DNA of 61,461 nucleotides, filler included, from Candidatus Nezhaarchaeota archaeon WYZ-LMO8 (GCA_004347965.1; 7 parts of 7 records of this genome joined end to end with filler, not necessarily neighbours in it); one strand, 5' to 3'; positions 3,001 to 9,000 are shown, numbered from the whole stretch's first letter. A program made the numbers.

Positions 3001-6000
3001 TGAGGTCTTGATGATGTCTAGGAGAATAATATTTGCTCTAATGTTCTCAATGCTTATTATAACCACATCTATGGGCATCGCTAATCCCATAGTTCCACTC
3101 TACGCTAAAAAACTTGGAGCAACGTACACAGACCTAGGACTAATAGGCATAGCCTGGTCAGCTCCCTACTGCATATTCCCTGTTCTTGCTGGTATGTGGA
3201 GCAATAAAGTTGGTAGACTAAGGTTGTTTCTCGTAGGCATTTTAATGAGCACTATCGTACCTCTCCTCCTACTAGCTTCAAGCTCCCCCCTCCACATAGC
3301 GTTGCTCAGGCTTTTTCACGGGATAGGCTTGTCATTTCTATGGGCTCCTGGTGAAGCCTTAATCTCTGATGTGACTAGAAAAGAGGAGAGAGCACGTTTT
3401 CTAGGCTTCTTTAGTGCTTCATGGGCTGCAGGGTACTTTCTTGGACCGTTACTAGGTGCACTGATAGTTGAGCAAGCAGGATATGAAGGGGTCTTCTGGC
3501 TCTCTTTTCTTGTAGGCGTAACATCACCTTTCACGCTATTGCTAGCCGGTGGCGATGTTAAGCCGAGATATGTCGTTAAGAGAGGGATCTCCCAGCTTGT
3601 AAGGAAGGCTGTAGTTGAAGGTCTACCTCTCTACGTAGTTGCCATAACCTCCAGCATGGTCATAGCTATAATCTACAGCATCTACCCAGCTTACCTCTCA
3701 AAACTAACGTTCAGTGATGCTGAGATATCCACCATGATGAGCATAATAGCTGCTACAAGAGCTCTAGGCTTCTGGTCGATAAGCCTACCCTCAAGGCTTA
3801 AAGAGAGGGAGGTGATAATCATTGGCCTGTCTTCTCAGGTCATTGCATCCTTCCTCGTAGCGTACTCTCAAGACTACGTACTAGTAGCGCTATCCATGGC
3901 GATAATGGGCTATGCCATCGGGCTTCAAATGCCTCCAGTTACTTCAGCTACATCGAGGATACTCGAAGGTGAAGTTGGTCTTCCAATAGGCATAATGGAG
4001 GCAATGTTCGGCGTTGGATGGGTTATTGGTCCAGGAGTTGGAGGAATCTTAGCTGACCTTGCTTCGTGGGACTTAGCACCCTACCTCTTCATGAGCTTTG
4101 TGAGTCTAGCTTCGTTGCTATACTTCGTTATCGCGAGATCCACGTGGAATATTGAAAAGTCTCCTTAAGCTACACAATTCTATGCTCCTCGCTAAGCGCA
4201 TAGATTACACGAACGTTAAGCCCAATGCAACGCTACGTGAAATTGAAGAGCTGTGCTTAGAAGCAATAGAGCTTGGCGTTAGAGCTGTATGCGTAAGCCC
4301 CTGCTACGTGAGCTACGCTAGGAGTCTCGTTAGAGGTGAAGTATTAATATCAGCAGCCATAGACCTACCATTCGGTTCATCAAAGATCGAGGTTAAGAGG
4401 AGGGCTGTTGAAGAAGCTATGGCTGATGGAGCCGACGAAGTGGACTACGTGATCAATATAGGGATGTTGAAGAGCGGCTTCAAAGAATACGTTGTACGCG
4501 AGGCGCAGGAAGTGCTTAAAGGAGCACGTGGAGGAACCGTCAAGGCCATAATTGAAACAGGCTTCCTCACGATAGACGAAATTAAAAGCGTATCCGTAAG
4601 TCTAGCTGATGTCGGAGTTCACTTCATAAAGACTTGTACCGGCTATGGACCGAGAGGAGTAACCGTAGAAGACGTTAAAGCGATTAAGGATGCTCTAAAG
4701 GGTAGAGCTAAGATAAAGGCAGCTGGAGGAGTGAGAGATAGAAGAATGGCGGAAGCACTTATCGACGCTGGAGCGGACATAATAGGGACGAGCACAGCAA
4801 GACAGCTGCTAAAACCTTAAGGAGATAGCTATCGTAAACTCATCTAATGGTTCCCCCTGAAAAATGCGGGAAGCAAAAGTCAAGTAAGCAATAAATTTCT
4901 CCAAATCCTCCCTCAACATCACCTTATCACTAACAAGGCTGTGGCTACGGCAATCAGGTCATCGCCTATCATTGCTTCACCGTAACCAACGGCCGTCCTA
5001 TTGCCAATATACAGCGGTCTCCCAACTCCTACGATCTTTCCCTTCGATGCAGGCTTTAGGTAATGAACATCTAACTGAGCTGTCACAGCAATCTTCCCAA
5101 CCTTAATTAGTTCCTTGTTTATGTTTAAAGCGATGGCAGAGTCAAGCACACTAGCCACAACACCGCCATGTGCTACCCCTAGAGCTTGATGATGCTTCTC
5201 CTCTAGATCAAGCTCAATTATTATTTCTCCACCTCTAAACCTAGGCTTCATCCCTATGAGCCTGTACCAAGGAGCTAACGAAACGTTCTCAAGCCATCTC
5301 TCCATAATTTCAAGGTCGAAGCCGTCAGCTTATAACCATTTTGTAGCGATGAGAGGTGGGAGGACAGTACCTCGCCTTCATCAATTATGATGAGTGAGTT
5401 ATAGAGCTAGGTCGGGGTATGTGGGTGTCGTGGTGCGGGGGGTGGGATTCGAACCCACGAAGGCCTACGCCACGGGATTTCTTACGCCCATCCGGCCTCA
5501 AATTCGAGGAGATCTTAAGTCCCGCCCCTTTGTCCGCTCGGGAACCCCCGCTTTCACTGCTGTTTCTTCTGTAGGGGTTTAAAAGCTTGATGTGGGCGTG
5601 GATCACCTTTTAAATCGCTCTGCTAATACATATGCTTGGTGATCTCCATGACCTTCTTTGAAGTTAGGAGCGTGGAGTGGCGAGATGGCGTTGTTAGGCT
5701 CTTAGATCAAAACGCATTGCCATGGGAGATGCGGTACGTGGAGTGCAGGAGAGTCGAGGAAGTCGCCAGAGCAATTAGAGAGATGACTGTTAGAGGAGCC
5801 CCTGCGATAGGAGTGGCGGCTGCCATGGGGATCGCATTAGCCGTTGTACACTCCAATGCAAGGAGCTTAGAGGAGCTTCTTAGAGACGTGAGCTCTGCAG
5901 CTGAGATTCTCTCGAAGGCGAGACCCACAGCTAGGAACTTGTTTTGGGCCATTGAGAGGATGATAGGTAGGATTAGAGAGGCAAGGAGCCTTGAGGAGGC

Positions 6001-9000
6001 AAGGAGCATAGCTTTAAGCGAAGCCCTCAAGATGGCTGACGAGGATGTAGAGGTGAATAAAAGGATTGGTGATGTGGGTGCCACGCTCATAAGTGATGGC
6101 GACGTGATATTAACTCACTGTAAACAGCTGGGCTAGCCCAGCTGGCAGAGTGCAGGGGCCTTAGCTACCGTCGGCTACGGTACAGCGCTAGGTGTCATTA
6201 GGAGGGCGGTAGCTCAAGGGAAGAGGGTCAAGGTCGTAGCCACGGAGACGAGACCAAGACTTCAAGGAGCGAAGTTAACAGTCTACGAGCTTAAGAGAGA
6301 TGGCATCGACGTCACCCTGATAACAGACAACATGGTCGGTTACGTCATGAGCCGAGGAATGGTCAATAAGGTCATAGTTGGAGCGGATAGGATATTGAGA
6401 GATGGTCACGTGGTCAACAAGATAGGGACTCTAACCATAGCTATAGTTGCTAAAAGGTACTCGATACCATTCTACGTGGCAGCACCGTCATCAACCTTCG
6501 ACTTAAAGTCGAGGGTCGACGAAATAGTAATAGAGTATAGAGACCCCAGAGAGGTCTTAGAGGTTAACGGTAGGCCTATCACCATAGACGTCGAGGTGCT
6601 AAATCCAGCGTTTGACGTAACACCTCCAGACCTCGTAACAGCAATAATAACCGAGAAGGGAGTGATATGGCCTCCATACCACGAGAACATACCGAGGACC
6701 ATGGGGAGATGAAGTAAACATTTATCCTATCCCACGACAACTAGAACACGGGCGATGAAAGGTCAGAGTTAAGATGAAAATTAATGATTGTAAGGCATTA
6801 GGTTGAGCCCCAATAGAAATATATGCTCAGGAACCTATGAGGATTGGGCGGCCGTCGTCTAGCCTGGACTAGGACACCAGCCTTCCACGCTGGCGACCCG
6901 GGTTCAAATCCCGGCGGCCGCACCACCTTTTTCTTCGTTCTCTGCTTTCTCAATTTCTTGCTTATAATCACAAATTTAGTCTCAAAGGTAAGCTTCTTTA
7001 GCTAAACTTAAGAAGTCTTCAACTGCCCATTCCTTATATATTTGTGATGAAAGTTTAACAATGAGAAGGGTGTTTATGTTGGATGAAGCCTACATAGGAG
7101 AAATTGTTCAGCCTTTCCCACCTCAATTTCTGGAGGATTTATTCGAGTTTGGGTAATTCATTGAGCGTAAAATACTCCGTCTATGAAAAGGAAATCTCTA
7201 GTGAGGCGTTAGAGATTGGAGAGATGGAAGGTGTTAAACTTGAGGATCGATACGTTGGTGGTGCACAAGTCTATTCAAAAGGAAGAGCTTCAATCGAGAA
7301 GCTTTTACAAATATATCAAGAATGATATCAGTATTGGATGTGAGAAGTTTTGGGGAAAAATGTTCGAAGAAATTGGGAGAGAGCGCCAAGAATCAATATA
7401 GGATAGATGAATTTTACTGGTCTAAATGGAAGGGCGAGGAAAGCCAAGGCTATAGTATGAAATTCGACAAATACAGTTTAAAATTGAGATGGATCCAAAG
7501 GAAGAGAAAATTATTGAAGGAATTATCGATTATGCAAAAAGCACCACGTGAAGATTAACATCAAAATAAGCCGAAGTTAAAAGTCTGCTAATTTTCATTT
7601 GAGAAATGTTTCTTCCTTAGTCTTGAACTTGAATTTTGTTGAAGGTTTGTTAAGTTAATATAATATAGTGGCTGAAATTTAATTTAAAAGGAGGATGTTG
7701 AATGATTGAAGTAGCTATTGGTTTAATGGGGCTGGCTTTAAGTGTTTTAGGGGTTGTGCTTGGTTATATATGGCGAGCCAATAGTAGATTAGCTAAGATG
7801 CTCCTCGAAGGTCAAGAAAGAATGCAAAAGGGAATGGAAGTGTTGCAAAAAGGAATGGAAGGAATAGCCTTAATGGTAAGAGATGTCCATGAAGGGCAAA
7901 AAGAGATGATGAAACTCTTAGCAGAAATATACAAGAAGATCTAGTTTGAAACTCAAATTTGATCTTTAAAAGGCGGGAATAAATCTCCTGCTTTTATTTA
8001 AAGAGAATCTTAGTTCAAAACTTTTAAGATTGTTTTGTCATAGATTTCTTTAGCTTTTCTGGGCAGAACCATTCTCTCAACACTTGTGGAGTAATGTTTA
8101 GCCCGGTTTTGCTCTTGCTTCAAGAAAAATTCCGTGTTTCTTGTTCGTTTTCAAAGAGAAGAGTTTATCACTGTTTTTGGTCCAATTTTTAACCATTGCT
8201 TTAGTGCTTTCTCAGCTTCATCGTCGTAGAATGTGATGTAGCTCTTTTTTAGAGTCGTGGTGAGGTATGACCATTCTCTTTTTAAGGACGAATATTGCTT
8301 TTTTACACTTTAAGGCTCCATATAACTTGCTCTTCTTTAGAGGGGGCCCTTTTGATGGTTGGATTTGGAAATTTAAAGCTTTGAACTAGACCCGGTCTTG
8401 CCAAGAAATCCCTAAAAAACCTTTGTAACGCTTTTAGCATGTTGGCATAAGTGTGTGAATTTCCATCCTTCAAATTTAAAAGGAAACTCCAAACATCTTT
8501 AACATCTACAGAATTGATGTTTCCTTGTTTCATCCACACCAAAAACTTTCTTATTTTATAGATGTACTGTTTCACCGTTTGTTTTGGAAAGCTGAAGATC
8601 GACTAGGCAGAATTCACTAAATCTCCTCAATATTTCCTTAAAATCAGAAATTCTCTCAAAATTATTCTCCTTATTCTCTATTTCTCTATTCAAATTGTTC
8701 TAATTTGCATTCTGGGCAATTTAAGAGGCTGCCACGCTGCGGACCCGGGTTCAAATCCCGGCGGCCGCACTTTAACCTTTTTCTAGTGATGGCTGCTCGC
8801 TACGGCACTCCTAGTATTCCTTCATTACACGCTGAATAACTGGAGGCCCTCATAGGGGTTGATGAGTACCTTCATTAAGGAGCACCTCAAAGAAATCGAA
8901 GTAGGATCTCTGAGCGGAAATGCGATGAGAGTGTTGCGACGCATTCACGACCTAGAAGCTGCTAGGTTATGGCTCTCTCATCGAGAGACCAGCTTCTTCA

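Follow-up and report, generated by a model that had tools for sequence, protein, structure and literature searches.

The mtnA gene of the hot-spring archaeon Candidatus Nezhaarchaeota archaeon WYZ-LMO8 (GCA_004347965.1) very likely contains a new pre-mRNA intron of the bulge-helix-bulge (BHB) type, a kind of intron that is already known. The window analysed, i.e. the whole stretch of DNA of 61,461 nt made of seven parts joined with filler, harbours this gene interrupted by an insert of 27 nt that contains an in-frame TAG codon and a 20-nt perfect palindrome, both of which had been pointed out in a preliminary description and could be read directly in the sequence (positions 6124-6150). We are highly confident that this insert corresponds to the relaxed HBh' (BHL) form of these introns, its excision being deduced from DNA (the 23 listed runs include none of RNA). 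All the computational tests available agree with such a relaxed motif and support the earlier interpretation of the insert as a BHB intron that would be removed from the transcript.

Results and Discussion

Anatomy of the insert and identity of the interrupted gene

The coordinates of the gene, the insert and their elements are summarized in Table 1. The start of mtnA is likely the ATG at 5648 and not the TTG at 5636 where the listed ORF begins; profile matches start around five residues past that ATG. An A/T-rich, TATA-like box located upstream could possibly be an archaeal promoter, judging from its sequence. Exon 1 closes with bases 1-2 of a split Asn codon, and removal of the insert joins AA to T, so that the Asn codon is followed by Ala-Gly and the motif THC-N-AG is restored, as had been proposed. 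In the inner hairpin h', 6125-6132 pair with 6137-6144 to give a stem of 8 bp, which is capped by the loop CUAG at 6133-6136, the latter containing the in-frame TAG (6134-6136) that terminates the ORF begun at 5636. The 5' bulge, whose AAA is invariant across all versions of the insert, is closed by the central helix H and by h'. On the 3' side the motif ends in a loop and not in a closed bulge, because no conserved outer helix follows: pairing at that position was not conserved across the versions examined, in line with the missing outer helix already described, and the structure therefore has the relaxed HBh'/BHL form rather than the strict hBHBh' one. The search against Rfam yielded no family at the insert, the only matches being the two flanking tRNAs and others at chance level.

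Table 1. Position of the mtnA gene and of the elements of its predicted intron (coordinates of the window).
Feature	Position	Strand	Basis or remarks
A/T-rich TATA-like box, ~32-39 nt upstream of ATG 5648	5609..5616	+	Direct reading only
mtnA exon 1	5648..6123	+	ORF list, profile matches; end from BHB geometry and orthologue alignment
Exonic strand of H, the 4-bp central helix (CUGU, within the His-Cys codons)	6118..6121	+	Pairs with 6145-6148
5' 3-nt bulge AAA	6122..6124	+	Direct reading; predicted cut 6123/6124
27-nt intron (predicted)	6124..6150	+	Sequence, orthologue comparison
Inner hairpin h', 20-nt perfect palindrome	6125..6144	+	Sequence, fold, pairing count
Intronic strand of central helix, H' (GCAG)	6145..6148	+	Pairing count
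3' splice-site trinucleotide AGU	6149..6151	+	Direct reading; predicted cut 6150/6151
mtnA exon 2, Asn codon base 3 to TGA stop (6710-6712)	6151..6712	+	ORF list, profiles

The two halves of the gene abut on all the protein profiles compared, namely NF004326 (9-166 and 167-352), TIGR00512 (1-159 and 160-333) and NF004700 (2-156 and 157-336; previously given as 2-155 and 157-336); the segments matching Pfam IF-2B, given as 2-115 and 167-280, have to be corrected to 2-115 and 117-280. The product that would result from reading through the TAG is a full-length match, with scores of 388.8 bits for TIGR00512 (cut-off 279), 434.7 for NF004326 (271) and 304.3 for PF01008 (22.4), and it stays below the cut-offs of the narrower equivalogs NF004700 and NF004436. 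In the alignment of this product with MtnA proteins of solved structure, its nine additional residues fall cleanly between the Cys and the Asn. Once the exons are joined, the active-site Cys loop (THCN) and the Asp of GADR are both present; we take this Cys and this Asp to have the catalytic roles assigned to them in the Bacillus MtnA literature. The nearest named relatives of the protein are encoded in Thermoproteota MAGs, with 66-70% identity.

Distribution, length and selection in related genomes

The genome belongs to an archaeal family (f1) represented by 10 species genomes, with two sister families (f2 and f3). The insert was present at the mtnA site in all nine f1 orthologues found, which span four genera, and was missing from the five orthologues of f2 and f3. 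A direct join was found in 79 of 80 named loci, with no further split at the mtnA site among the 62 genomes of the class. Some apparent breaks had other origins: in genome G054 a run of G with a frameshift of 1 nt, an N gap in G030, and in genus g28 a TGA lying upstream of the mtnA start (2 of 3 genomes checked).

The lengths of the f1 inserts are 27, 27, 30, 30, 30, 32, 31, 29 and 31 nt, so the nine loci with 27-32-nt inserts previously counted were recovered. A pattern scan of metagenomes gave at least 121 loci; six of those listed correspond to the mtnA site, and variants of 25 and 31 nt among the matches listed bring the overall range to 25-32 nt. In six of the ten distinct versions of the insert the length is not a multiple of three and the frame is shifted. 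Joining the exons in silico restored the frame, the THC-N-AG motif and an AAY Asn codon in the nine f1 orthologues and the metagenome variants listed, regardless of the last two bases of the intron, which differ between versions (AG, AU or AA). Wherever dS could be estimated, dN/dS ranged from 0.03 to 0.16 in both exons, with dS mostly above 1, which places both of them under strong purifying selection. Selection also acts on the stems of the intron, as supported by the mean pairwise identity of its 25 non-loop columns (0.886, with 17 invariant columns) when set against 99 four-fold sites (0.341, none invariant) and the intron loop (0.421).

Predicted structure of the RNA

The preliminary description had mentioned covarying hairpins. 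Pairing is indeed conserved, since 103 of the 104 pair cells were paired across the eight distinct genome sequences; in a control where the 3' partners were slid by 1-3 columns, only 17.6-47.2% were. The central helix keeps its four pairs in all eight sequences (32/32 cells), with variation solely by G-U wobble. The evidence for covariation did not hold to the same extent: only one of 13 pairs changed on both sides in these sequences (G-C to A-U via G-U), and shuffle controls were not significant (129/500 and 87/500). In the 25-nt metagenome variant a different pair also changed on both sides, from G-C to C-G; it was read by eye, as the MAFFT alignment had misplaced the 3' arm of this variant.

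Thermodynamic predictions count against the intron, as do the thin covariation and the missing outer helix. The folding energy of the insert region was no better than that of shuffled sequence (z = -1.03), and in the minimum free energy (MFE) fold of five of the eight sequences the partner of CUGY is the beginning of exon 2 and not the intronic GCAG. For the sequence in the window, the BHB fold lies above the MFE by 4.7 kcal/mol at 37 °C and by 0.3 kcal/mol at 80 °C. Loops of 4-8 nt interrupt the palindrome in the relatives, where pairing is nevertheless retained, which fits an RNA hairpin. The sequence of the stem is conserved beyond what pairing needs, so another constraint is possible.

Splicing machinery and proposed mechanism

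Two EndA paralogues were found over the cut-off in the genome, in the regions C12:27651-27908 and C2:24757-25020. One of them, alpha-like, has the catalytic chains 3p1z_B and 3ajv_B as its closest matches, is ungapped over the Crenarchaea-specific loop and has a Lys at the position of A. pernix K44 (Lys44, as given in portions of PMC3241643). The second paralogue, beta-like, most resembles 5x89_A in its EndA-like part and, on reading its sequence, does not have the catalytic His. RtcB is also encoded (601 bits). Judging from these sequences, the genome encodes an alpha/beta endonuclease of the type known to cut relaxed motifs, together with the RNA ligase RtcB. According to passages of PMC12397907 dealing with endonuclease-RNA crystal structures, the splicing endonuclease cuts between nucleotides 2 and 3 of the bulge; this rule, applied to the mtnA fold, removes exactly 6124-6150, and in the other f1 orthologues and the metagenome variants it likewise takes out the very bases without which the frame and the Asn codon are regained.

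We infer the following sequence of cleavage, ligation and circularisation. In the transcript, the exonic CUGU would pair with the intronic GCAG to form the central 4-bp helix, which would stack on the 8-bp intron hairpin across the AAA bulge. A heterotetrameric alpha2-beta2 endonuclease would cut each site between nucleotides 2 and 3, after which RtcB would ligate the 2',3'-cyclic phosphate of one exon to the 5'-OH of the other and would probably circularise the excised 27-mer. Short circles tend to be under-represented in circRNA-seq (PMC7714728). The spliced mRNA would be translated into a normal S-methyl-5-thioribose-1-phosphate isomerase of 352 residues with the THCNAG active-site loop intact, while on unspliced mRNA translation would end at the TAG in the hairpin loop.

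Alternative explanations

Translational recoding of an uncut RNA, by read-through of the TAG, frameshifting or hopping over the hairpin, seems very improbable to us. The insert in the window has a length divisible by three, so that read-through would stay in frame, a concern raised in the preliminary description. In addition, the stop is located inside the hairpin and only a few codons downstream of where take-off would occur, loosely like in phage T4 gene 60, where the ribosome reportedly hops over a hairpin. However, relatives with inserts of 25, 29, 31 and 32 nt remove that concern, as read-through cannot serve the versions of non-triplet length. Nor could a matched pair of take-off and landing codons keeping the frame of exon 2 be found by sequence reading, and translation cannot give Asn from a codon that is not intact in the DNA of most versions (3' end AGU, AUU or AUC). 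Bypassing, moreover, gives no role to the conserved helix of 4 bp that exon 1 forms with the 3' part of the intron. A DNA-level element (a protein-binding palindrome, a miniature mobile element or a site of recombination), with the RNA unprocessed and the gene either silent or expressed in two pieces, is no more credible than recoding. Such an element could account for a perfect palindrome with CAGCTG twice and for a conservation of the stem exceeding the needs of pairing, but the palindrome is single in the genome at up to three mismatches, and thus does not belong to a repeat family, and the interrupted palindromes of the relatives retain pairing. Expression in two pieces has to be reconciled with a break located in the active-site loop and with the lack of any in-frame ATG, GTG or TTG from 6137 up to the ATG at 6332 (ORF list and sequence reading): with no start for around 60 codons, a separate C-terminal protein would be left without part of the domain. 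By our estimate, one perfect 20-nt palindrome in 1.35 Mb is about the chance rate; a chance origin is excluded because the insert is conserved, not because of the palindrome itself.

That every copy has an in-frame stop or a frameshift, and that an annotation pipeline would probably call mtnA broken, could suggest a decaying pseudogene with an acquired palindromic insertion. We give this even less credit, given the low dN/dS of both halves while synonymous sites are saturated, the absence of any other stop or indel in the nine orthologues of four genera, the selection acting on the insert itself, and the fact that this is the sole IF-2B-family member in a genome that is 93% complete. As for an assembly or sequencing artefact at the hairpin, its probability is practically negligible. 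A related named contig (L074) stops exactly where exon 2 starts, which suggests that hairpins of this kind can break assemblies; yet the same insert is present, with no indels or joints, in contigs from four runs of four studies (three of these runs may be source samples), and diverged versions occur in eight other genomes and in independent metagenome contigs. A BHB intron in mtnA is the explanation we favour.

Other candidate introns in the genome

A loose genome-wide scan for BHB motifs gave 443 matches, mostly at gene boundaries, and a strict one gave 19, of which those in mtnA, aIF5B and aIF2-gamma were verified with profiles and most of the other 16 look weak. The 33-nt insert in aIF5B forms a perfect strict hBHBh' and has the same layout as in mtnA; that in aIF2-gamma is of the same design. 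The layout is also shared by a 22-nt insert in cbf5, which splits the Asp codon of GTLDP. The in-frame stop lies within the hairpin loop in mtnA, aIF2-gamma and cbf5, while in aIF5B it is formed by the final three bases of the intron. A broader proposal, which we consider unlikely, is that BHB introns of coding regions form a set (cbf5, aIF5B, aIF2-gamma and mtnA) in the f1 family, and partly in its order, and lie on active-site or nucleotide-binding codons, making GTPases, an IF-2B-family enzyme and a pseudouridine synthase depend on the endonuclease and RtcB as a splicing checkpoint on translation capacity. Such introns would persist like inteins, because only exact removal is tolerated at those sites. 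If this were true, production of two translation-initiation GTPases, the IF-2B-family enzyme and the pseudouridine synthase would be tied to the activity of the endonuclease and RtcB.

Significance and comparison with known systems

A conserved intron in mtnA, along with the two in initiation-factor genes, would show that introns of this type are not an oddity of cbf5. They would also explain genes that automatic annotation likely calls broken or split in these lineages, miscalls that would understate metabolic capacity, in this case methionine salvage. The mtnA inserts would serve as clean, natural minisubstrates with which to study how specific the alpha/beta endonuclease is for relaxed motifs, and their gain in f1, set against intron-free sister families, offers a dated case for studying the origin of introns.

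The cbf5 pre-mRNA intron was reportedly described by Watanabe in 2002 and Yoshinari in 2006. In the sections of published reports considered here (PMC2738675, PMC10485636), cbf5 is the only archaeal coding-region gene for which endonuclease-dependent splicing has been shown, one more mRNA case being located in a 5' UTR, and the excerpted text of a 2023 review anticipates further archaeal mRNA cases (PMC10485636). The cbf5 intron of Crenarchaeota is 16-44 bp long and often has a relaxed BHB, as stated in parts of Yokobori (2009; PMC2738675). Like it, the mtnA insert is short (25-32 nt), lies in the coding region splitting a catalytic-site codon, is tied to a hetero-oligomeric endonuclease, is lineage-restricted with gain and loss, and is readily mistaken for a frameshift or for gene decay. 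Unlike cbf5, the host is a metabolic enzyme of the IF-2B family, the intron sequence is unrelated and its occurrence is more restricted (a single family, with 10 species genomes); besides, cbf5 splicing has been shown by experiment, whereas that of mtnA is predicted here from DNA sequence. The intron of HVO_1309 in Haloferax volcanii, as presented in extracts of PMC7714728 and PMC10485636, is likewise a BHB-flanked piece of mRNA cut by the tRNA-splicing endonuclease, as predicted for mtnA, but it is located in a 5' UTR, has 46 nt, leaves the reading frame uninterrupted and belongs to a euryarchaeon with an alpha2 enzyme. The non-canonical (HBh'/BHL) tRNA introns of Crenarchaeota share the motif class with mtnA (segments of PMC3241643 and PMC5829648) and the need for an (alpha-beta)2 endonuclease that has the Crenarchaea-specific loop, lysine included (segments of PMC3241643). 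In mtnA, unlike in those introns, the host RNA is an mRNA and lacks the tRNA body that would assist docking of the enzyme. In eukaryotes, the IRE1-dependent splicing of HAC1/XBP1 is likewise carried out by protein alone: a small intron is cut out of the mRNA at stem-loops and ligation follows. This type of splicing is mentioned in portions of PMC13149111. As would be the case for mtnA, protein-only excision and ligation change what the mRNA encodes, although HAC1/XBP1 differ from mtnA in their use of IRE1, their twin 7-nt loops and their regulation by stress.

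The interrupted mtnA gene

Contig C35 of the archaeal genome under study (G000; 1.35 Mb, 78 contigs, 93% complete) corresponds to window positions 1-9482, and the stretch is contained in hot-spring metagenome runs. In the ORF listing, the interrupted mtnA frame starts at TTG 5636 and ends at the TAG at 6134-6136; ATG 5648 is the more likely start. When the TAG was read as X, the frame extended to 6712 and yielded an IF-2B-family protein of full length, which scored as S-methyl-5-thioribose-1-phosphate isomerase in profile searches (388.8 bits against TIGR00512, cut-off 279; 434.7 bits against NF004326, cut-off 271) and matched Pfam IF-2B over positions 2-280 of 280. 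Searched separately, the two halves gave abutting matches on every profile, for example 9-166 and 167-352 of NF004326, and alignment to the solved structures 1t5o and 1t9k showed nine extra positions in the THCNAG loop, where they separate the Cys from the Asn-Ala-Gly. No second IF-2B-family gene was found in G000. The insert (6124-6150) includes a perfect 20-nt palindrome at 6125-6144, which is single-copy in the genome with up to 3 mismatches allowed. Directly upstream of mtnA, on the opposite strand, lies a 118-nt tRNA gene (5434-5551, minus strand; Rfam tRNA, 41 bits), called by ARAGORN as Leu-UAA with a 35-nt intron.

Predicted fold and cut sites

The elements of a putative bulge-helix-bulge (BHB) motif are listed in the table, along with three further inserts of the same genome. 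In crystal structures of splicing endonucleases bound to BHB RNA, the scissile phosphate lies between bulge nucleotides 2 and 3, as described in the available text of PMC12397907. Applied to the mtnA fold, this rule predicts cleavage at 6123/6124 and 6150/6151; excision at precisely these two bonds would regain the frame and form an AAU Asn codon. A conserved outer helix was looked for at the 3' site and none was found, so that the motif is of the relaxed HBh'/BHL form, as the preliminary description had proposed. The layout, in which each strand runs 5' to 3' from central helix through bulge to flanking helix, is validated in this genome by the strict motif in aIF5B, which shares it, and the cbf5 insert is laid out in the same way.

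Features of the putative mtnA motif and of three further inserts in G000
Feature	Position	Strand	Remarks
Central helix, 4-bp	CUGU 6118-6121 (exon) with GCAG 6145-6148 (intron)	+	sequence reading
5' bulge, 3-nt	AAA 6122-6124	+	sequence reading
Inner hairpin, 8-bp stem, CUAG loop	6125-6132 with 6137-6144	+	sequence reading
3' site	AGU 6149-6151, after 4-bp helix on 3' side	+	sequence reading
aIF5B insert, 33-nt, terminal in-frame TAG	C77:21331-21363, outside window	+	adjoins conserved TQHIGA motif
aIF2-gamma insert, 32-nt, 10-bp hairpin, in-frame TAG in loop	C77:23751-23782, outside window	+	directly after DCPGHE
cbf5 insert, 22-nt relaxed BHB, in-frame TGA in loop	C1:~76636-76657, outside window	-	splits Asp codon of GTLDP

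Folding energetics were neutral with respect to the motif. The mtnA region folded no better than shuffled sequence (z = -1.03), and for the window sequence the BHB fold reached -18.0 kcal/mol at 37 C and -4.7 kcal/mol at 80 C, versus minimum free energies (MFE) of -22.7 and -5.0, respectively. The MFE structure included the BHB core in three of eight sequences; in the rest, CUGY paired with the start of exon 2.

Distribution among relatives

The family to which G000 belongs (f1) is represented by 10 species genomes, nine of them with mtnA; the one lacking it is 75% complete. The same codon is interrupted in each of the nine, by inserts of 27, 27, 30, 30, 30, 32, 31, 29 and 31 nt, and joining in silico at the predicted bonds gave an identical THCNAG loop in every case. 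A pattern scan of metagenome contigs returned at least six mtnA-site loci among at least 121 matches listed, and these listed matches yielded a 25-nt version and another 31-nt version. Across the f1 genomes and the listed metagenome matches, insert length is not a multiple of three in six of the ten distinct intron sequences. Orthologues in the sister families f2 (four) and f3 (one) are all uninterrupted, reading CAY-TGY-AAY-GCN-GG, and among 62 genomes of the class no gene apart from the f1 ones was split at profile position 166/167; of the other apparent breaks in the class, one was a 1-nt frameshift, one an N gap, and the rest were stops that precede the start codon. Among named loci of bacteria and archaea, 79 of 80 join directly; in the other, the contig ends at the junction. 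This contig, from a named Thermoprotei MAG (L074), starts exactly where the exon-2 match starts, and its assembly may have been broken by a hairpin insert at that point. In one f1 genome there is a further IF-2B-family gene, without an interruption (L008, G009:C30:1032-1994; THCNMSG..., 275 bits), which might be contaminating sequence or a paralogue; no such gene occurs in G000.

Constraint on exons and insert

Among eight distinct f1 genes, dS was mostly above 1 or saturated, and dN/dS was 0.03-0.16 per exon wherever dS could be estimated. Mean pairwise identity was 0.341 at four-fold degenerate sites in invariant-residue columns (n=99, no invariant column), versus 0.886 at non-loop intron columns (n=25, 17 invariant). 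The insert is therefore non-coding yet strongly constrained, with the exception of the loop, variable both in sequence (identity 0.421) and in length (4-8 nt). Pairing was intact in 103 of 104 cells, versus 17.6-47.2% with partners slid. True covariation was limited: one pair changed from G-C to A-U via G-U, five pairs showed wobble changes only, shuffle controls were not significant, and an additional G-C to C-G exchange was read by eye in the 25-nt metagenome variant.

An in-frame stop (TAG, TGA or TAA) is present in all mtnA versions (loci L001-L012, L199 and L213, the metagenome ones being among the matches listed) and in the three other G000 inserts. It lies in the hairpin loop in mtnA, aIF2-gamma and cbf5, and in the last three intron bases in aIF5B. 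In all ten distinct mtnA introns it follows the Cys at a distance of four or five codons; among random strings of nine codons with matching composition, a fraction of about 0.31 contain a stop. Its universal presence may reflect selection for an early end of translation on unspliced mRNA.

Alternative explanations

Read-through of the TAG would yield a protein in G000, but fails as an explanation since it is incompatible with the versions in which the insert shifts the frame. Ribosomal bypass of the hairpin would lack matched codons and could not supply the Asn, while two separate proteins from a split gene would leave the break in the active-site loop and about 60 codons past the insert without an in-frame start. 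Selection acts on both exons and mtnA is the sole copy, which contradicts a pseudogene.

A repeat acting at the DNA level is contradicted by the single-copy insert and by the loops that break the palindrome in relatives, and an assembly artefact by the presence of the insert in four runs from four studies and by the interruption of diverged orthologues. The mtnA insert is very likely a BHB pre-mRNA intron that arose at the root of a single archaeal family.

Other inserts and splicing machinery

A genome-wide scan for a 4-bp helix, bulge, hairpin and complementary 4 nt, with an ORF open only after insert removal, gave 19 matches, recovering mtnA and two strong cases on C77. In aIF5B (TIGR00491, 783 bits, one TAG inside) the motif is a perfect strict hBHBh', with outer, central and inner helices of 6, 4 and 11 bp and two 3-nt bulges; in most of the order's 15 genomes, aIF5B appears to contain an internal stop or to have lost its first exon. 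For aIF2-gamma, TIGR03680 matches two separate frames, over positions 2-93 in one and 91-407 in the other, and the break occurs in 10/10 f1 and 0/5 sister-family genomes, the pattern seen for mtnA. Each of the four inserts begins with an A, which is nucleotide 3 of the 5' bulge, and in each the 3' site also begins with A. All four lie on codons of conserved motifs. Removal also opens a reading frame at the 16 further matches (e.g. C77:13529-13556, C42:5294-5316, C75:1346-1372), which are weaker BHB-like candidates, some of them clearly gene boundaries.

G000 encodes two paralogues of the tRNA-splicing endonuclease EndA above the Pfam cut-off. The 185-aa one has 3p1z_B and 3ajv_B, both catalytic chains, as its nearest matches, aligns gap-free through the Crenarchaea-specific loop and carries a Lys where A. 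pernix has Lys44, which has been shown to broaden the range of substrates, according to the available text of PMC3241643. The 178-aa one most resembles the EndA-like part of 5x89_A, with a weak likeness to 3p1z_A, and lacks the catalytic His in our reading of its sequence. The G000 endonuclease is of the (alpha-beta)2 type, which together with the epsilon2 type cuts non-canonical introns (PMC5829648, in the part available). The ligase RtcB was also found (601 bits), and ARAGORN called 40 tRNAs, 16 of them intron-containing, some calls being doubtful.

Comparison with known BHB introns

A full-text literature search of limited coverage returned no published report of an mtnA intron. As far as the accessible parts of PMC2738675, PMC7714728 and PMC10485636 go, cbf5 is the only archaeal coding-region case with splicing shown, further cases are considered likely, and in Haloferax a BHB intron lies in the 5' UTR of HVO_1309. 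The cbf5 insert of G000 disrupts a catalytic-residue codon, like the known crenarchaeal cbf5 intron, and the putative mtnA intron is very likely an addition to this known kind, the BHB introns in pre-mRNA.
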